A program made the position numbers and the translations under genes. A DNA stretch of 64,000 nucleotides from Gammaproteobacteria bacterium (GTDB lineage Bacteria; Pseudomonadota; Gammaproteobacteria; S012-40), in assembly GCA_029881255.1 (NCBI GenBank), contig JAOUMY010000010.1, positions 92,653 through 156,652 of the forward strand, read 5' to 3'. Every line of letters begins with the position of its first letter. The first letter of the stretch is position 1. The notes beneath the pieces are model-generated. The model saw only the letters and a program-made list of their open reading frames with translations. It did not search any database and had not been told where the DNA came from. Shown piece by piece: positions 38,248 through 46,363 of the stretch.

Positions 38248-40287
38248 ATGAGCAAAACTCTGATCCAAGGTATGAAACGCTGGCCGCTGTGGCTGCAAGT
38301 AAATTTGGCAATGCTTTTCGTTACTGTTCTGGTGACTCTGGTAGTAGGTGGATATATACGGGAGGAAGAATCCGAATACTACACTCAGGAAAATGATGTA
38401 GAAGGAAAGCGAGTATTGTCCCTAGTCGGTTTGGCTGCTGCAAAACCACTAGCGGAAAAGGATGATTCGGCGCTTCATCGCTTGGTACAAGACATCACAT
38501 CACTCACTACCGATATTGTTGGACTAACAGTGTTTGACGATACGGGCAAGATTCGCACGCGATGGTCCAAAGAAGAAGATCTATCAACATCCACAACGGA
38601 TTTGAGCAAAGAGCTGTTTGTCGATAATCAATTTGTGGGCAGTGTTCGCATCAGTTGGAAAGATGCCAGTGCCATTTCCAATGTTAGTCGCCATATTGAT
38701 GAAATGCAGATGGTTATTTTGGTTTCATTTCTGTTTTTTTGCGTAGCAGCAACACTGGTTTTTCACAAATTGGCGGTGTCCCCGGTGAATGTCATTAATC
38801 GCCGATTACTCTCGTTGGCTGATGGCGACTATGATTCAAGACTAAGTTTATCCACGTCTGAAGAGATTGCTCGCCTGAGCAGCTCATTTAACAAGCTAAG
38901 TGACGTGCTGCAATGCCAGGAAGATGAAAGCCAGCGTATGCAAGAGTTGCTGGAAAACAAGGTGCATTCCAGGACGCGCGAGCTTGAGAAGCTGTATGAG
39001 CAAATGAAATATCAGGCCTTTCACGATGCTTTGACGGGCTTGCCAAATCGCATGTTGCTTAATGATCGGTTGCAGCATGTCATTGTTAGAGCGCATCGCT
39101 ATGGCGTTAACGCAGCAGTGCTGTTTGTTGACCTTGATCGCTTTAAACAAATAAACGATTCATACGGGCATATGGTCGGTGACGAGTTAATCAAACGAAT
39201 TTCCGGTCGTCTACGCGGAGCCCTGCGCGAGGAAGATACGGTTGCCAGACTTGCCGGTGATGAGTTTGTGGTCGTGCTTTACGATATTAAGACACGCGAT
39301 AATGTTGAATCCGTAGTGCGGAAGTTGTTGAGGGCAATTTCTCGACCAATGTATATCGATAAGCTGACGATCGAAAGTGGAGCCAGTATAGGTGTGAGCT
39401 TTTTTCCTGAGGCCGGACATACGCCGGCTGAGCTGATAAAAAATGCGGATATTGCCATGTATCAGGCCAAAAAGAGTCTGCATAAGCAGTATGCATTTTA
39501 CGATGTCGCGATAGGCAAAGAGAATTCACGGCGTTTGAATATCATGCAAGACGTGGCCTTTGCAGTGCGCAATAATGAGTTACAGGTGCAATATCAAATC
39601 ATTAAGAACATCGAAACCAACCAGTGTTCTGGCGTAGAGGCACTGGCCAGATGGCTACACCCTGAATTAGGTATGATTTCGCCGGGCGATTTTATTCCTA
39701 TCGCCGAAGAGATAGGCGTCGTGACGCAAATAGACTTGTGGGTGCTCGAAACGGCCTGTCGCGAATTGAGCGAGTATAATCTGACGCACAATAAAAATTA
39801 TTTCATATCGGTGAATCTTTCGTCGAATACGTTTCAGTCTACGGATTTGATTGAAAAAATATCATGCATAGTTGAGCGTATGTCTACGCCGATGCCGGAT
39901 GTTCAAATCGAGATAACGGAGAACACCTATTTGCAGGAAGTGGAGCTGGTGTTTGAAAATATTCAACGTTTGAAGACTCTGGGGTTTCGTATTGCGGTCG
40001 ATGATTTCGGTTCCGGATATGCGTCTTTTTCTTATTTGACGCGACTTCCGATAGATACCGTGAAAATAGACAAGCAATTTATGCATCGCGTCACCAGCAA
40101 TGATAACTCTCACACCATAGCTAAGGCGATAATCAATCTAGGGAATAAGCTGGGTCTGATGGTAATTGCCGAGGGTGTTGAAAACCAGGACCAGGAAAAA
40201 TTTCTTTTGGAACAGCAGTGTTCGAGTGCGCAGGGTTTTTGGTATGGTTCTCCTGTTGGTATTCAGGATCTGGCGGTTGATTCGTAA
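38248..40287 (+). CDS. Membrane-bound diguanylate cyclase/phosphodiesterase (periplasmic sensor - HAMP - GGDEF - EAL)
   Basis: 679 aa with two TM segments and HAMP. The GGDEF motif reads AGDEF and has an I-site-like REED 5 residues upstream. The EAL domain is intact (GVEALARW, DDFGSGYAS, EGVENQ, QGFWY). Confidence 0.85.
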   Translation: MSKTLIQGMKRWPLWLQVNLAMLFVTVLVTLVVGGYIREEESEYYTQENDVEGKRVLSLVGLAAAKPLAEKDDSALHRLVQDITSLTTDIVGLTVFDDTGKIRTRWSKEEDLSTSTTDLSKELFVDNQFVGSVRISWKDASAISNVSRHIDEMQMVILVSFLFFCVAATLVFHKLAVSPVNVINRRLLSLADGDYDSRLSLSTSEEIARLSSSFNKLSDVLQCQEDESQRMQELLENKVHSRTRELEKLYEQMKYQAFHDALTGLPNRMLLNDRLQHVIVRAHRYGVNAAVLFVDLDRFKQINDSYGHMVGDELIKRISGRLRGALREEDTVARLAGDEFVVVLYDIKTRDNVESVVRKLLRAISRPMYIDKLTIESGASIGVSFFPEAGHTPAELIKNADIAMYQAKKSLHKQYAFYDVAIGKENSRRLNIMQDVAFAVRNNELQVQYQIIKNIETNQCSGVEALARWLHPELGMISPGDFIPIAEEIGVVTQIDLWVLETACRELSEYNLTHNKNYFISVNLSSNTFQSTDLIEKISCIVERMSTPMPDVQIEITENTYLQEVELVFENIQRLKTLGFRIAVDDFGSGYASFSYLTRLPIDTVKIDKQFMHRVTSNDNSHTIAKAIINLGNKLGLMVIAEGVENQDQEKFLLEQQCSSAQGFWYGSPVGIQDLAVDS

Positions 40288-40369: not shown

Positions 40370-41716
40370 CTAAAAAATCGCTAACATCTGCAGGCCGAGA
40401 ATTGGATCTACGGCCTCGGCGAGTTGAACCGCAAGGTCACGCTTAGCTGGATCCGAAATGCTGTCAGGGTTTGGGACACTCATCATGCGATGAGTATAGT
40501 TGGCAACGATGCGAGTCTTTTTGTTTATAAAGTATTGCAGGCCTAATGTGGCGTTGCTAAACACGCGTTCTTTGCTAGGGGTGTGTGTGGAGCGATTGTA
40601 CTGATCCCAGCGGAAGTCGAATTCTATGTGCTTCGTAACGTTGTAGCCTATATGTGTGTAAAATCCCCAGGCTGTGCCATTGGCTTCTACGTTTATCCCG
40701 GCGAATTCAGCGCCGGCGTTTTTCGTGGCGCCGACGACGGCGCCGTCGTCGGTACCATTCAGGATAACGCCTGTGCCAGTAATAAATTCCGCCGCAGCGC
40801 TGAGTTTTCCTTTGCGAAAGGTGCTGCCCAGACCGGAACGTGTACGATCATATAATTGATTATCCAGCGTTCGCTTACCCATTTGCGTCCAGGCAAACAT
40901 CTTCCAGCTTTGCATGCGTGGCCCCTCACCGGCAAAGACTTGCTCAGCAGAAAAGTAGGCATAGTATTCTTTTTGATTGTTATTGTCCTGGCGATTAATA
41001 CCGTTGCCATTGCCTATCATCAGAGCATATGACGCTTGCCACTTTCCGAAAACAAACATGTCAAAAAGCTGGGCGCCTATGTCACGGAATGCTCCGCGTC
41101 CTGCGACCGGCTTGTTTACACTTTCTTTAGTCGTATGCGCTGTGGTGCCTGTACCATTAACAAACGTTTCGAAGAGCAGGCCGTCGGTTACACTGCTGAA
41201 GTTGATGTAATCAAACACATGTATGGCCTGCAAGCCTTCCTCCGCTCCAGGTGTTTTAAATTGACCAACTCTGAAACGTGCGCCCGGTATTTGGTTGAGT
41301 GTGATGCTGGCGTCAGTTAAATACGCCGAGCCGCCACCATCACCGGGCACTGTAAGCGCATTGTGGCCAAATTCCGCAAGAATGAAGTAATTGGTTTTGC
41401 CGTCGAGTGGAAAGCCTTGTCCCCGCACGCCAATACGTGCGCGACGAATATTCATATCCCAAGTGGATTTTCCGTCAGGGCCAAGTATGTTGGCTTGATA
41501 GCGCTGTCCGACATAATCGCCGGCTGGAATGGTAGTACCTTTTATATACTGAGCAGTGGGTTGTATAAACCCCCACACGTGAGCACGACCAGCGGCGGAT
41601 GTGGGCTCTGTTCCCTGTAGTAACAGCCAGTTTGCTGCATGCGCAGGCAAGCCAGGATTCATGACAACGGAGATACAAATCACTGCGAGCGACAATTTCT
41701 TCAAATCCATCGGCAA
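40370..41716 (-). CDS. Outer-membrane porin, phosphate-selective porin O/P-like
   Basis: 448 aa with a signal peptide ending PAHA, the RRARIGVRG motif typical of the OprO/OprP family, alternating beta-strand pattern and a C-terminal aromatic residue (...LAIF). Confidence 0.7.
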   Translation of the reverse strand: MPMDLKKLSLAVICISVVMNPGLPAHAANWLLLQGTEPTSAAGRAHVWGFIQPTAQYIKGTTIPAGDYVGQRYQANILGPDGKSTWDMNIRRARIGVRGQGFPLDGKTNYFILAEFGHNALTVPGDGGGSAYLTDASITLNQIPGARFRVGQFKTPGAEEGLQAIHVFDYINFSSVTDGLLFETFVNGTGTTAHTTKESVNKPVAGRGAFRDIGAQLFDMFVFGKWQASYALMIGNGNGINRQDNNNQKEYYAYFSAEQVFAGEGPRMQSWKMFAWTQMGKRTLDNQLYDRTRSGLGSTFRKGKLSAAAEFITGTGVILNGTDDGAVVGATKNAGAEFAGINVEANGTAWGFYTHIGYNVTKHIEFDFRWDQYNRSTHTPSKERVFSNATLGLQYFINKKTRIVANYTHRMMSVPNPDSISDPAKRDLAVQLAEAVDPILGLQMLAIF

Positions 41717-41745
41717 TTCCTCTTCAATCCGCTACAGCTCAAAGT

Positions 41746-42198
41746 CTATGGTTTAACAAGCGTAAACCCTTTGGCCGTAAGATCCAGTATGTGTATTACA
41801 CCGGCCGAAACAATTTTGGCCTGGTTGTGAAGCGCAGGTTCTTTTCCCATTTGTTTGGCGAAACTTTTCAAGGTGTTGTTGCAGGCCGCGAAACGTACGC
41901 CACCATTGTTTACCAAGCCGTCAATGCGGTCCTTGTTCTCGTTATCTGCAAACAACAAGCGTAAGCCAGGCCCGAAGGCGACGATCTCGACATCGATTTT
42001 GTCCGGACCAAACACTTGAATAAGATTGTTAGCGACATTCAAAACAAAAGTTTGTTTGAAGGGATCGGCGTCGCTGATTTGCAGAACCACTTTTTTCTCG
42101 GCGAATGGTTTGTCGTCCGTCGCCATAACAGCGCTGCTGCTTAATGCCAGAAAACTCAAAACACTCCAAAGGGCTAGTTTGTGTAATAAACCTTGCAT
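41746..42198 (-). CDS. Periplasmic DsrE/DsrF-like family protein
   Basis: About 150 aa. The start is the ATG at 42198 after GGAGGA. Signal peptide (LSFLALSSSAVMA). KKVVLQISDADP...VEIVAFGPGL...VRFAACNNT resembles the COG1416 DsrE-like fold with its Cys. Confidence 0.6.
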   Translation of the reverse strand: MQGLLHKLALWSVLSFLALSSSAVMATDDKPFAEKKVVLQISDADPFKQTFVLNVANNLIQVFGPDKIDVEIVAFGPGLRLLFADNENKDRIDGLVNNGGVRFAACNNTLKSFAKQMGKEPALHNQAKIVSAGVIHILDLTAKGFTLVKP

Positions 42199-42468
42199 GC
42201 AATCCTCCAAAAATGCTTATCAAATATGCTGTCATGCGATGTGTATGCTCCGGAAAAGTCATTGCGTGGCTGTTGACGGCGCCGCGAGTAAGTAACTCAT
42301 TATCGACTAAGCGTGGCCTTTGACCTCACAAACTAAACCTAAGATATGCATGGTCTTGGTCTTGGTCTTTGGTGACCAAGACCTTCACTATACACATTGC
42401 GTCAAGTTGTAAAACCCTGAAATATGCATGAATAGAACCAGGCGTGAATAGCAGAGAAAAAATTATCA

Positions 42469-43377
42469 TTATTGTGACAATAAATAGAATGCAATCGCAT
42501 CGATCTGATCGGGCGACATGACAGTTTTCCAGGCGGGCATAGCGCTCCCTTTGACGCCTTCGGAAATCTTTTGCGATAAGCTAGCGATAGTTTGTTCGCC
42601 CAGAAAGGCGGCTTGAGTAAGATCTCGTGGATGGGGAAGTATAAACTGGCCTATCCAGTTTTTGCCGCTGCCGTCATTTGCGTGACAGAAGGTGCAGTTT
42701 TGCTGGAATAATTGTTGGCCTTGCAGATAGCGAGGGTCTTTGTGGTTTGTTCTGGTGTCCATTTTTTTATCGTGCAGGGCGTATGGAGAGGCGCTACTCG
42801 TCGTGTCGATGTCTGCCGTTTTATGAGAATACTGATTGCGTGGATAGGATAGCGGCCTGGATTCCCACACAAGGCCTTGTTGCTTAACCGTAGCGCGGTC
42901 ATGGCAGGAAACACAGGACGACATGAAGAGCTGCTTTCCTTTTCGTTGAATTTCGCTGAGACTCTCCCAAGGCGTGTCGAGCGCAATCTCTCCGGACACA
43001 AAGGGGAAAGCATCGCGATAGCGCTGGTGATTTTCCCAGCCGTTTTCGCGGCTGTGATAGACCGTATTTTTTTCTTTATTTTGAATAAACACTTGTCGTA
43101 CAAATGAAACCACTTGTGTGATTTCGGCTTCGCTAAGGAGTTGCTTGAAACCCTTCATCGCCGTACCCGGTTTGCCATCTCTAACGGCATCGATCATTTG
43201 TTGATAGCTAAGATCACCTGGGCGGGTATCCAAAAACGAACGTGGCGGGGGGGTAAGAAAAGAGGCCGCCAATGTCTGTGCATCACCCGAGTATCCGTGG
43301 CAGAAGTAGCAACGATAATTGTAAATTGCGCGACCTGCTTCCAGACTTGCTCTGTCGCTATGCGCCGACGTCAGAGC
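42469..43377 (-). CDS. C-terminal three-heme half of a six-domain c-type cytochrome (reachable only by a -1 frame change from the upstream ORF)
   Basis: The frame is open from 43431. CxxCH motifs are CYFCH (43297-43311, upstream of the tracked TTG start), CVSCH and CTFCH. There is no ATG/GTG/TTG before 43272 and no signal peptide. Confidence 0.6.
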   Translation of the reverse strand, partial: ALTSAHSDRASLEAGRAIYNYRCYFCHGYSGDAQTLAASFLTPPPRSFLDTRPGDLSYQQMIDAVRDGKPGTAMKGFKQLLSEAEITQVVSFVRQVFIQNKEKNTVYHSRENGWENHQRYRDAFPFVSGEIALDTPWESLSEIQRKGKQLFMSSCVSCHDRATVKQQGLVWESRPLSYPRNQYSHKTADIDTTSSASPYALHDKKMDTRTNHKDPRYLQGQQLFQQNCTFCHANDGSGKNWIGQFILPHPRDLTQAAFLGEQTIASLSQKISEGVKGSAMPAWKTVMSPDQIDAIAFYLLSQ

Positions 43378-44339
43378 TTTTTTTTTATGAAAGTGAGATA
43401 GACAAATTCGGCTATGTTGGCAACCTGCTGATCATTGAGGACAGTCTCCCATGCGGGCATGACGGTGCCTTTTTTGCCTTTCTTGATGGCATGAAATAAG
43501 GCGGGTCTGTCGAAACGTTGTTGCGTGTCGGCAGAAGTGAAGTCTCTTGGGCGAGGATAATTGAAATGTGCCCGTGGGCCTTTGCCGTCGCCCTGTTTAC
43601 CATGACAGGTAAAACAATTGTTCATATAAAATTTTTCACCTGCTGCGCTATCACCGACTAATCCTTTAGGAAAATTGGCAGAAGCATCGCTAGCGGATGA
43701 CCGTTCACTTTTGCTGCTTTCTTCAGACATGAACGAAGCGCGTATAAAGTCGACCACGCTCTCAATTTGTTGTGCATCCAATCGTCGTTGAAACGACATC
43801 ATAGCGGTACCCGGACGGCCGTACGTAACCGAGGTAATCATTCGCTCACGGCTGAGTTCTTCTCGTGCTGCTTCGCTGGTGAAGTTGCGTGGCGGTGGCG
43901 TCAAACCGTTTTTTGCCCAGACGGCGGTATTGCCATTGTCGCCATGACAGGCAGCGCAATGCTCGATATAGAGTTGTTTGCCAGCGGGAGTTTTATCACC
44001 GGTTTTATGACCGACGAAATGCGCCATTATATAATCGGCCAGCGCCGCAATTTGGCTTTCGCTCAGGCGTCGCCCGTAGGCCACCATTGCCGTGCCTTTT
44101 TTGCCATCCCTTATGGCCTGTGCAATATTTTTCTTGTTTAACTTGTCTCGCAAGGCAGTAAAGCTACTCGCTGGAGGTTGAAGATTGGCTCCTGCCCGTC
44201 CGCGGCCATCACCTTCGTCGCCATGACAGACGCCGCATTGCTTGCGATACAAACGTTCCACATCGTCTGCCGCTTGCACTGGGGATAGCAGCAAAGGGAG
44301 TAGTAGCGAACAAATTGTAATAACAGTTTTCAAGGACAC
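43371..44339 (-). CDS. N-terminal three-heme half of a six-domain c-type cytochrome (class I-type domains)
   Basis: Signal peptide MSLKTVITICSLLLPLLLSPVQA. CxxCH motifs CGVCH, CAACH and CFTCH, each followed by PPxR..F and a G-T-[AV]-M axial-Met segment. Confidence 0.8.
   Translation of the reverse strand: MSLKTVITICSLLLPLLLSPVQAADDVERLYRKQCGVCHGDEGDGRGRAGANLQPPASSFTALRDKLNKKNIAQAIRDGKKGTAMVAYGRRLSESQIAALADYIMAHFVGHKTGDKTPAGKQLYIEHCAACHGDNGNTAVWAKNGLTPPPRNFTSEAAREELSRERMITSVTYGRPGTAMMSFQRRLDAQQIESVVDFIRASFMSEESSKSERSSASDASANFPKGLVGDSAAGEKFYMNNCFTCHGKQGDGKGPRAHFNYPRPRDFTSADTQQRFDRPALFHAIKKGKKGTVMPAWETVLNDQQVANIAEFVYLTFIKKKL
43377..43386 (-). other. A9 homopolymer / A_AAA_AAG slippery heptamer at the junction of the two cytochrome ORFs
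   Basis: The minus strand reads TTC ATA AAA AAA AAG CTC TGA. A -1 shift or one extra A continues as GCT CTG ACG... into the downstream heme domains. Confidence 0.5.
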
Positions 44340-44477
44340 GGGATTGATACGTATAAAACAGTGGTTCGTTGCGGCAGGTCGGGTTTAATTGTGGCGTAAT
44401 TCAGGATTTTGCGCTACCCTAATGTGCTTTGAAAATTCGAACTACCGAAAAAGCGTCCATAACTGTCGGATTCATCA

Positions 44478-45287
44478 ATGTTTTTTAGTCAGGAAAAGGG
44501 TTCACCACGTAGCAGGGCTCGCTGGGGTATTGTGTCAGCTGTGGCGCTCGCATGTACCGCGTGGCTGAACATGACTCACGGTGAAGCGATTATTGGTGAC
44601 CCGGTTCAAGGGGCTAATGATCCGATACTCGGTACCAAACACGATTTTACCGGCCTCAATAAACGCGCTGGCGTTGTCGCCATGCCGGGCGTGGCGTTTA
44701 GTGATTTTGGTAATCCCTGCGTGCACTGTCACATTCCGCCGGATCAGGCAGATTCTGATTCGATAGCGCTTGGGGCAATTGAAGGCTGGAACCGCTATCA
44801 ACCGGCAACGAATGAATATCGCCTTTATGACAGCGTGCACCTTGATTCAAAAACGCGCACGCCAAGTCCGATCAGTTTACTTTGTCTTTCCTGTCATGAC
44901 GGCACCATGGGTGTAGACATGGTGGTATTCAAGCCTGGCAATTTTGACAGCGCCGAAGACAAGGCCATGCACATGCGTATCAATTCGGCGGACAATACCG
45001 TGAGTTGCGGAAAGTGTCATAATGGACGCGTCGCCCACGACATCTCGATCAAGCATCTTGCGCAAGATCTGAAGAACGATCATCCCATCTCGATGCGTTA
45101 TGCCGGTTTGTTACGCTCAGACGTTGATTTTCGACTGCCCCACACGCCTGGTGGTTTTGACAATGGCGTCAAGCTGTATGAAGGTCGGGTAGAGTGCGCG
45201 AGCTGTCACAACGTCCATAATCCTGAAAAAGACCTGTTATTGCGTGCTGACTCCGATCTTTTATGTCAGACCTGTCACACCAAATAA
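44478..45287 (+). CDS. Pentaheme c-type cytochrome (cytochrome c3 / doubled-CxxCH type)
   Basis: 269 aa with a signal sequence and five CxxCH motifs (CVHCH, CLSCH, CGKCH, CASCH, CQTCH). The last pair fits the doubled-CxxCH pattern C..CH.VH......LL......LC..CH. Confidence 0.8.
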   Translation: MFFSQEKGSPRSRARWGIVSAVALACTAWLNMTHGEAIIGDPVQGANDPILGTKHDFTGLNKRAGVVAMPGVAFSDFGNPCVHCHIPPDQADSDSIALGAIEGWNRYQPATNEYRLYDSVHLDSKTRTPSPISLLCLSCHDGTMGVDMVVFKPGNFDSAEDKAMHMRINSADNTVSCGKCHNGRVAHDISIKHLAQDLKNDHPISMRYAGLLRSDVDFRLPHTPGGFDNGVKLYEGRVECASCHNVHNPEKDLLLRADSDLLCQTCHTK

Positions 45288-46363
45288 ACGCCCGATTTTC
45301 GGCTATCGGTGTATGGGCATTTGTCATTGCTCTGTTGTCGGGCTGCGCAACACCACAAATTCGGCTAATTGATCCTCCTGTATATCCACCCCTACCCGCA
45401 GAAACGCGTTATGTCTACGAAGGATCGATTCGTAGTGGCAATAATATTACGGTGTCGACGTTTTCCGATCGCCTCAGAGAATTTGTGACGGGTATACAAG
45501 TTTCACCGCTGGGACTGGCCAAGCCCTATAGTTTGGTGGTGAAGAATGAACGGATTTATGTGTCGGACACACAGCAGCGCGCGATACTGGTGTTTGATCT
45601 GCAGCAGCGCACAGTCTCCAGTTTTGGCATGGAAGGTAAGGGCAGTCTGCTCAAACCGCTGGACCTGGCTATCTCCAAAGAAGACGAAATCTATGTAGTC
45701 GACATCTCCGCTAAACGGGTTGCCGTTTACGACTTGCAGGGGGATTATCTTCGCGCAATAGGTTCAGCCGATGATTTTCAACGGCCGGTTGGCATCGCCT
45801 GTCATCCGTCCAAGCCCTGGGTTTACGTGGTGGATGCCGGTGGTCTTGAAAGTGATAAACATCAAATTCTGATATTTGACAGACAAAGTGGCGCCTTAAT
45901 ACGTAAATTTGGTACACGCGGACGCGAACCTGGTCAGTTTAATTTGCCCCTTCAGGCAAGTATGAGTGAAGACGCGCGTTTGTACGTGGTCGATAGTGCG
46001 AATTTTCGCGTGCAGGTATTCGACGAAAACGGTGAATTTGTTTCCACCTTTGGGCAGCTCGGGCGTCGTAGTGGGCAGTTTTCTCGGCCCAAAGGGATAG
46101 CAACCGATAAGAATGGCAACGCCTATATTGTCGATACTGCGTTTGGCAATTTTCAGATTTTCACCCCGCAGGGCGAGTTGCTTTTATATATTGGTGCGCG
46201 CGCGACGTCTGGCGGGCCGGGAATGTTTAGTCTACCTTCCGGCATAGATGTAGATGAGCAGGGACGTATCTATGTCGTCGACCAGTTTTTCCGTAAGATC
46301 GATATCTTTCGTCCCGTTGAGATACCGCCGCGCAAGGTGTTTAGCTCACAAGTTCGACAATAG
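45263..46363 (+). CDS. NHL-repeat six-bladed beta-propeller lipoprotein
   Basis: Lipobox LLSGC. Six repeats of the form [IVL]YV[VS]D...R[VI].[VI][FY]D..G......G. Overlaps the cytochrome gene by 25 nt. Confidence 0.75.
   Translation: MSDLSHQINARFSAIGVWAFVIALLSGCATPQIRLIDPPVYPPLPAETRYVYEGSIRSGNNITVSTFSDRLREFVTGIQVSPLGLAKPYSLVVKNERIYVSDTQQRAILVFDLQQRTVSSFGMEGKGSLLKPLDLAISKEDEIYVVDISAKRVAVYDLQGDYLRAIGSADDFQRPVGIACHPSKPWVYVVDAGGLESDKHQILIFDRQSGALIRKFGTRGREPGQFNLPLQASMSEDARLYVVDSANFRVQVFDENGEFVSTFGQLGRRSGQFSRPKGIATDKNGNAYIVDTAFGNFQIFTPQGELLLYIGARATSGGPGMFSLPSGIDVDEQGRIYVVDQFFRKIDIFRPVEIPPRKVFSSQVRQ

Follow-up and report, generated by a model that had tools for sequence, protein, structure and literature searches.

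Two described systems stand closest to the locus discussed in this article, one by its gene content and the other by the way in which one of its genes may be decoded. The first is the secondary c-type cytochrome cluster of the Tenderiales (Candidatus Tenderia electrophaga, bioRxiv 10.1101/2022.05.06.490989), which brings together at one locus a pentaheme cytochrome, an NHL protein and a pair of neighbouring class-I triheme cytochromes and is conserved in Tenderiales and neighbouring orders; in the preprint the trihemes count as two separate proteins, and a frameshift is not mentioned. The second is dnaX of Thermus thermophilus, which resembles the present locus in having a nine-A/T run inside a cellular, non-mobile gene, stops near the run in the other frames, two products with a common N-terminus (here predicted ones) and no need of a stimulatory structure (PMC5009743). 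The locus itself occupies positions 40370 to 46363 of a 64,000-nucleotide (nt) stretch of DNA, hereafter the window, from Gammaproteobacteria bacterium (S012-40; GenBank assembly GCA_029881255.1, contig JAOUMY010000010.1, positions 92,653-156,652 of the forward strand), and its minus-strand cytochrome genes, cytA and cytB, lie in two different frames that meet at a run of nine A residues (A9). Judging from sequence comparison, I lean on balance towards A9 being a true programmed transcriptional-slippage site in a respiratory c-type cytochrome locus, long kept in at least 29 gammaproteobacterial lineages. For the locus as a whole, I consider it fairly probable that it combines a divergent recoded cytochrome core, with a suggested electron-relay role in the periplasm, and a juxtaposed cassette of a DsrE-like protein and a porin.

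The core matches the Tenderiales cluster in its genes: a pentaheme c-type cytochrome (44478-45287, plus strand) is followed by an NHL lipoprotein (45263-46363, plus strand), and divergently from these cytA (43371-44339, minus strand) runs into cytB (42469-43386, minus strand). A further point of likeness is that the window's genome also carries uetABCDEFGHIJ, and in one probable Tenderiales-like locus (L116) the ccm genes, thioredoxin, sensors and NHL gene follow each other in the same order and the A9 junction recurs. The two differ in that the heme-bearing phosphodiesterase for cyclic di-GMP and the periplasmic sensors adjacent to the Tenderiales cluster are not found beside the window's core, the heme-sensor enzyme being on another contig, and in that the window has the DsrE-like/porin cassette appended; in both clusters the function is a deduction. 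An earlier note on this DNA, made by a model from the letters and a list of open reading frames (ORFs), could match the combination to no named system and took it for an accessory insertion, and both of these judgements have to be replaced, since the core equals the Tenderiales secondary cluster and is a widespread, rearranged family-wide trait, with a G+C content across the cluster (0.46-0.52) that is the same as in its flanks.

This distribution was established by retrieving orthologous loci from 16 sampled genomes (12 genera) of the window's family and by scanning species-representative genomes, where 464 relatives were found and 80 loci retained. The divergent arrangement, with pentaheme and NHL genes on one side and cytA-cytB on the other, occurs in 15 of the 16 family genomes, and of all proteins in the cluster the pentaheme cytochrome is conserved best, being 74-81% identical in the same number and having 321 homologues at E<=1e-30. 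In most of the 80 retained loci an NHL gene, 39-49% identical, lies upstream of cytA/cytB on the other strand, while in about ten of them, mostly truncated, no NHL gene was seen; overall the NHL protein is 39-58% identical and adjoins the cytochromes in most of the 80+ loci with a long enough contig. Of 400 genomes sampled from the class, 34 also have the core, and conservation of the neighbourhood, which the earlier note had proposed as a check, thus holds for the core genes.

Two frames and one A-run

The minus-strand cytochrome had been described in the earlier note as one six-CxxCH gene running from 44339 to 42469, a description that overlooked the frameshift: the span measures 1871 nt, which is not divisible by 3, and hence holds more than one reading frame. 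Gene coordinates were taken from a six-frame ORF list and families from Pfam and NCBIfam profile searches, and the gene structure, the frame relations, the conservation and the run are seen directly in the DNA. cytA encodes a periplasmic triheme protein of 322 amino acids (aa) with a signal peptide, three CxxCH motifs and three class-I cytochrome c domains, and ends in ...TFIKKKL-TGA, the stop lying 4 nt past the A9 run (43378-43386, minus strand; cat AAAAAAAAA gctcTGA), which is the candidate recoding site at the cytA/cytB junction. cytB, with three cytochrome c domains of its own (CYFCH, CVSCH and CTFCH), occupies the -1 frame. This frame is open between 43431 and 42469, and its first ATG, GTG or TTG comes only after the first heme motif, CYFCH (the ORF list has 42469-43272, minus strand, 267 aa); cytB has neither a usable start codon nor a signal peptide. 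A -1 ribosomal slip on A9, or an mRNA with one A more, would join the frames as ...TFIKKK-ALTSAHSD...CYFCH to give a 623-aa hexaheme, with the predicted junction peptide ...FIKKKALTSAHSDR (also written ...TFIKKKALTSAHSDR); a synonymous form of the run that breaks the homopolymer is AAGAAGAAG. Heme attachment is Ccm-dependent, and a CytB that is neither fused nor exported could not mature to a holocytochrome. Lacking a start codon and a signal peptide, cytB would therefore be expressed, exported and loaded with heme only as a fusion to CytA.

The two proteins carry class-I domains (PF13442; 142 bits over three stretches in cytA and 98 bits in cytB), and the earlier note had asked whether the cytochromes might prove to be ordinary carriers such as CcoP. 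The scores do not bear this out: on the ccoP equivalog TIGR00782, with its cut-off of 180, the two minus-strand ORFs reach only 93 and 76 bits, and CytA/CytB is, despite its domains, a distinct protein family, linked to multiheme cytochrome and NHL genes. The central heme domain of CytB (residues ~95-200, CVSCH) is without an invariant methionine. Across 89 CytB sequences just two methionines are invariant, sufficient for hemes 4 and 6, and the other invariant residues are H98, H107, H192, NGW, PF and W161; heme 5 of CytB may, on this pattern, be bis-histidine or open-coordinated, and so possibly reactive.

What the relatives share at the junction is the run alone. Within the window's family an A9 that needs a -1 shift is present in seven genomes (G000, G001, G003, G004, G007, G008 and G013) and an A10 that needs -1 in another (G009), and 20 of the 80 retained loci, together with L116, also have an A-run needing -1, in every case A9 except for one A10 (L061). 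Altogether 29 distinct loci need -1, 27 with A9 and two with A10, and run lengths of 7 or 8 were seen in none of them. In the frameshifted loci a zero-frame stop follows 1-42 nt past the run, the run falls in three different codon phases, and the linkers from run to heme (43-194 nt) are unalignable, the flanks being variable and the run conserved. Every frameshifted locus examined has its cytB frame open over the run and the full set of three heme motifs, and up to the stop codon if the contig extends so far, and the CytB of these loci is 48-59% identical to that of the window. Three family genomes depart from this state: G010 retains A9 although its cytA and cytB are in frame, and in G006 and G014 the two are fused in frame and the run is absent. 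In the cytB tree the hard-fused G006 and G014 stand beside the frameshifted G001 (96 in the Shimodaira-Hasegawa-like approximate likelihood-ratio test, SH-aLRT) and G010 groups with the window (SH-aLRT 85), and since hard-fused and in-frame forms are thus nested among frameshifted ones, the fusion is taken to be the functional, selected product.

The run is also reproduced in independent data. Logan contigs from two sediment metagenome runs give the window's A9 exactly, and those of four runs from three studies (activated carbon, 2015; biofilter and drinking water, 2024) give the A9 of the related locus L081 at depths of 11-105, in both cases with no indel. Carriers of the L081-type locus are abundant in biofilter, activated-carbon and drinking-water metagenomes.

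In about 55 other loci cytB is a gene of its own, with a Sec signal peptide or a lipobox, and the carriers include Aromatoleum (where the cytA stop overlaps the cytB start as ATGA), Azoarcus, Dechloromonas, Sulfuritalea, Gallionellaceae, Thiobacillus, Oxalobacteraceae, Magnetococcales, Sedimenticola and Thioalkalispiraceae. In several genomes of Burkholderiales type the separate cytB starts with a lipobox (e.g., LLVSLAACSD; L043, L060, L072, L079, L087, L089, L094, L099 and L108), and CytB in those loci is predicted to have a lipid anchor in place of a fusion to CytA. One protein family thus shows CytB in four alternative forms: free, lipid-anchored, slip-fused and hard-fused.

Probable slippage and competing explanations

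The junction has the appearance of programmed recoding, for which transcriptional slippage is the most likely mechanism. Bacterial RNA polymerase slips efficiently on 9-nt runs, and its RNA-DNA hybrid measures 9-10 bp (PMC5009743); slippage at the transcript level is favoured because no stimulators were found, because runs of 7 or 8 do not occur, because nine is an efficient slip length and because G010 keeps its A9, on which slippage would in that genome yield a triheme instead. Compared with dnaX of T. thermophilus, the locus differs in that the long Thermus product is the zero-frame one, as it is in G010, whereas the 29 loci here would yield the long product only through the slip, and in that dnaX encodes a replication factor and cytA/cytB an exported respiratory cytochrome, for which RNA-level slippage is deduced from DNA. 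The A/T homopolymers of the genome number 1271 at length 7, 323 at length 8, 40 at length 9, four at length 10 and one at length 11; those of length 9 are about half of what the 7-to-8 ratio predicts, the fall from 8 to 9 being about twice as steep, a shortfall in line with a general avoidance of slippery runs.

Several observations weigh against transcriptional slippage. The run contains A_AAA_AAG/A heptamers, and the only tRNA-Lys found in the genome is tRNA-Lys(UUU), so that the ribosome has a possible slip site of its own; a search of sequencing runs found no RNA run holding the window's organism; and in X24, one of three runs labelled "RNA?" that were matched with L081 and that hold only a diverged relative, as contigs, a 7.8-kb contig shows the A-run unslipped and with no indel, contigs being a form of data that hides minority variants. 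The same X24 contig (in the region of L081 9900-10700) has 21 nt missing in frame upstream of the run.

The first of these observations leads to the best of the competing explanations, which I nonetheless judge unlikely, namely that the hexaheme arises by ribosomal recoding on an mRNA that stays A9, either through a programmed -1 frameshift of the dnaX type (A_AAA_AAG or A_AAA_AAA) or through sliding of the ribosome on poly-A. A valid X_XXY_YYZ heptamer stands in the zero frame at all loci, in each of the codon phases seen, and the window and G013 have the very A_AAA_AAG heptamer of Escherichia coli dnaX, combined with the single tRNA-Lys species, UUU, that makes AAG shifty in E. coli (PMC5009743); ribosome sliding on poly-A is documented as well (PMC4363877). 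However, the stimulators of E. coli dnaX, an upstream Shine-Dalgarno (SD) sequence and a downstream hairpin, are not found here: the 60 nt downstream of the run fold no better than shuffled sequence (mean z -0.47), which gives no conserved hairpin, and no SD-like element is apparent on inspection of the 30 nt upstream. The frameshift also shortens the dnaX product, whereas it would lengthen that of cytA. A heptamer would suffice for a ribosomal slip, yet 27 of the 29 runs are exactly nine and none is 7 or 8, and G010 retains A9 though it is in frame.

That the frameshift is unprogrammed, and comes from a mistake in sequencing or assembly, from a pseudogene in decay or from a homopolymer that varies its phase at the DNA level, is very improbable, for although homopolymers are error-prone and can be phase-variable, and the 45 A/T runs of at least 9 in this genome come close to chance expectation, the A9 is given by independent contigs from several runs and studies, cytB is intact and under constraint (48-59% identity), and the 29 loci, drawn from many studies, share one out-of-frame state that includes two A10 runs also needing -1, where error or phase variation would produce mixed frames.

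The DsrE-like/porin cassette and the flanking genes

Beyond cytB on the minus strand lie the DsrE-like gene (41746-42198, alternative start 42210; 150-154 aa with a signal peptide, GGAGG standing 6 nt before the ATG at 42198) and, after a gap of 29 nt, the second gene of the cassette, a porin (40370-41716; 448 aa, signal peptide, C-terminal ...LAIF), with coordinates and gap as the earlier note had placed them. The DsrE-like protein has no Pfam hit, PF02635 included, and PF02635 is recorded for some of its homologues. It aligns over residues 39-154 with MTH1491 (PDB 1L1S; E 4.2e-9), RFAACNNTL falling on RFCACSNTL, and the cysteine in RFAACNNT, which had been described as conserved-looking, is indeed conserved to at least 95% across an alignment of 123 sequences, three of them from this genome and the other 120 homologues. 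The protein is thus best read as a secreted DsrE fold of the MTH1491/COG1416 branch, sharing with MTH1491 and the DsrEFH and TusBCD proteins the fold and the cysteine in a VRFxACxNTL motif; DsrEFH and TusBCD are cytoplasmic hetero-oligomers with dsr/tus partners, unlike the window's protein, which is encoded by a single gene with a Sec signal peptide and a porin as its neighbour.

The porin, which the earlier note had called OprO/P-like, has itself no Pfam hit even at E<=1 and matches nothing in a direct PDB sequence search, and to this extent the assignment stands on its relatives and on a model. One orthologue (L113), with which it shares 51% identity (E 4e-150), scores 41 bits on Porin_O_P (PF07396; cut-off 20.9), and orthologues 48-51% identical score 38-49 bits on the same profile. 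An AlphaFold2 (AF2) model with ~16 strands (predicted TM-score, pTM, 0.66; predicted local distance difference test, pLDDT, 60) has as its top Foldseek matches only 16-strand diffusion porins, with OprP (2o4v) as hit number 8. The phosphate selectivity of OprO/OprP comes from an arginine ladder and a lysine cluster, features finer than a model of this pLDDT resolves. Taken together, model and orthologues make the protein a probable member of the Porin_O_P lineage, a diffusion porin of ~16 strands in the outer membrane whose barrel is too small for a cytochrome inside it.

This bears on the porin-cytochrome conduits (MtrCAB, PioAB/MtoAB, PCC3 and UetABC), whose layout the earlier note had recognized in the cluster. 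The likeness consists in multiheme cytochromes encoded near an outer-membrane barrel and near helpers of the NHL or peptidyl-prolyl isomerase (PPIase) type; a conduit barrel, however, needs ~20-26 strands and at least 600 aa, whereas the window's has ~16 strands in 448 aa, and the window's porin is not genetically tied to the cytochromes, being absent from most cytA/cytB loci. The real conduit cluster of this genome is on another contig (C37:256017-269501), where a complete uetA-J-like set runs in the order NHL, tetraheme, PPIase, 605-aa barrel, triheme, triheme, 491-aa protein, triheme, NHL, NHL and undecaheme (831 aa), and is followed by ccmA/B-like genes.

That the cassette is independent of the cytochrome core, and merely juxtaposed to it, is indicated by where else it occurs. 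In three unrelated contigs (L111, L113 and L114) the gene pair, 51-70% identical to that of the window, stands without nearby cytochromes behind divergent genes for an extracytoplasmic function (ECF) sigma factor and its anti-sigma factor; the window's pair is the same, unlike these modules in having neither an adjacent sigma factor nor its promoter motif and in sitting after cytB. In the relatives with the cassette behind cytB, the spacers between the two measure 130-260 nt, and in L032, L074 and L095 they hold a promoter-like site, TTGACA-N17-GATAGT, between cytB and the DsrE-like gene; the spacer is probably a boundary between transcription units. In the window it covers 42211-42468 (minus strand; 258 nt), with the GGTCTTGGTC/GACCAAGACC hairpin, a strong one of the form GGTCTTGGTC-ACCA-AAGACCAAGACC and without a U-run. 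Scans of the cluster for sigma-70 promoters and terminators gave hits no more numerous than in shuffled sequence.

The genome has an ECF locus of this general kind at C37:306408-308298, with an ECF sigma factor, a 241-aa anti-sigma factor whose C-terminus aligns with the DsrE-like family (VTFRACSS), the cysteine included, and a divergent secreted DsrE-like paralogue alongside; its 143-nt spacer contains two facing promoter-like sites, GGAATAAA-N-CGTCT (GGAATAA..CGTCT). The idea that the window's cassette belongs to the regulon of this sigma factor was rejected, as the GGAATAA..CGTCT motif is absent from the spacer at 42211-42468. A paralogous porin, 37% identical, is found at C28:324215-325534 (L018 8150-9535), flanked on one side by an OmpR-type two-component system with small cytochromes and by a cytochrome b561-like gene, and on the other by a hybrid kinase and a FIST protein.

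Could all six genes nevertheless form one sulfur-oxidising module, in which the porin would admit a sulfur anion (thiosulfate or polysulfide), the DsrE-like protein carry a persulfide, and CytA/CytAB and the pentaheme take the electrons? The exported DsrE fold with its invariant cysteine, the descent of the porin from an anion-porin lineage, and the central heme domain of CytB, which without the usual methionine ligand and with invariant histidines could hold a reactive heme, speak for such a module, as does the colinearity of cytB, DsrE-like gene and porin in six family genomes and in L032, L033, L074 and L095. Yet the cassette occurs without the cytochromes and the core without the cassette in most loci, the two are separated by spacers of 130-260 nt with promoter-like sites of their own in relatives, and no catalytic sulfur enzyme is present in the cluster, so that I regard a single module as rather improbable. 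The envelope redox module of the earlier note therefore survives as the conserved cytochrome/NHL core, and the DsrE-like/porin pair has to be taken out of it as a separate cassette.

The GGDEF-EAL gene next to the cassette (38248-40287) had been called unrelated to the cluster, rightly so. Relatives have a GGDEF-EAL gene with a CxxCH heme sensor beside the NHL gene; the window's gene is a paralogue with a different N-terminus, and the own-genome orthologue of the relatives' CxxCH-sensor HAMP-PAS-GGDEF-EAL protein (56% identity) is detached from the cluster, at C9:34835-37285. As a cluster member the window's GGDEF-EAL gene was rejected, given that it lacks the CxxCH periplasmic sensor and that the true orthologue is on C9.

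The cytochrome core and its proposed role

Returning to the core, the 138-nt intergenic region between cytA and the pentaheme gene has in its middle a motif of ~37 nt, ATTGTGGCGyAAAA-N5-TTTrCGCTACyCTAA, with a GCGyAA/TTrCGC dyad (44388-44423, plus strand), a candidate shared operator or promoter. It is conserved in at least 18 genomes, standing at the same position in the window, G001, G003, G004, G007, G008, G009, G010, L032, L033, L040, L046, L065, L074, L083, L095 and L116 and in partial form in G006 and G014; a genome scan found no second full copy in the window's own genome, and no FNR or sigma-54 pattern was found in the intergenic region. Whether the divergent units are co-regulated had been raised in the earlier note, and the shared motif supports common control of both arms as far as sequence conservation can speak to it.

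Of the plus-strand arm, the pentaheme cytochrome (269 aa, five CxxCH, signal peptide) has the doubled-CxxCH C-terminus that had been described, with a Paired_CXXCH_1 match of 38.5 bits and a borderline match to MtrC domain II/IV; its AF2 model, built without hemes, is unusable (pLDDT 42). It brings the locus to the 11 CxxCH motifs that had been counted before. The NHL lipoprotein (366 aa) overlaps it by 25 nt and has the six blades attributed to it earlier (PF01436, 71 bits; the six-bladed propeller family DUF5128, PF17170, 75 bits), and with its lipobox LLSG/C and alanine at +2 it is presumably anchored in the outer membrane. In Aromatoleum, cytA/cytB have as neighbours an NHL gene and, in the UetC/UetB/UetA pattern, an outer-membrane barrel of 819 aa, a PPIase and a tetraheme. 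The pentaheme, a paralogue of UetA-like tetrahemes, is 30% identical to this tetraheme beside the PPIase and barrel.

From these relationships one can picture the core as a divergent operon pair around the conserved operator-like motif, one arm providing the pentaheme and the outer-membrane-anchored NHL propeller lipoprotein and the other a periplasmic class-I cytochrome c chain with two products from one locus. Ordinary decoding of cytA would give the triheme CytA of 322 aa, and addition of one A by RNA polymerase on A9, or a -1 slip of the ribosome, would give the 623-aa CytA-CytB hexaheme, in which form alone CytB would get to the periplasm and receive heme, the slippage rate on A9 setting the ratio of triheme to hexaheme. 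CytA and CytA-B, with the pentaheme and the NHL protein, would then make up a high-potential periplasmic electron relay that links a Uet-type outer-membrane conduit with inner-membrane oxidases or reverse-electron-flow complexes during the oxidation of extracellular or insoluble electron donors, a role suggested because of the gene neighbourhood and the lifestyles of the carriers (electroautotrophs, iron oxidisers and biofilter populations). The cassette would have been placed behind cytB in part of the family and be driven elsewhere by its own ECF sigma/anti-sigma pair, and would most likely admit and bind a small anion, sulfur species being plausible from the fold.

On the other side of the ledger, the electron-relay role draws on gene neighbourhood and on the preprint's own inference, Aromatoleum and Dechloromonas, both among the hosts, are no classical iron oxidisers, and the cassette follows cytB in six of the 16 family genomes and a few others, so that its link to the cytochromes could be accidental.

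To my knowledge, very few cases of programmed transcriptional slippage are known in cellular, non-mobile bacterial genes. If the reading of A9 as a slippage site is true, conserved slippage in an exported electron-transfer protein would be new, and the proportion of two redox carriers would here be set by recoding: the share of transcripts given an added A, a fixed one, would determine how much tethered hexaheme "wire" is made per free triheme carrier, and the added A would at the same time bring about the export of a cytochrome half whose own start codon and signal peptide have been lost. Separating the cassette from the cytochromes avoids a false call of a porin-cytochrome conduit and flags a widespread, undescribed periplasmic DsrE-fold system. 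For the annotation of Tenderiales-type electroautotrophs, the "two triheme cytochromes" would become one recoded hexaheme gene in many genomes, and such a recoded hexaheme would alter models of how electrons from Uet-type conduits are transferred through the periplasm.

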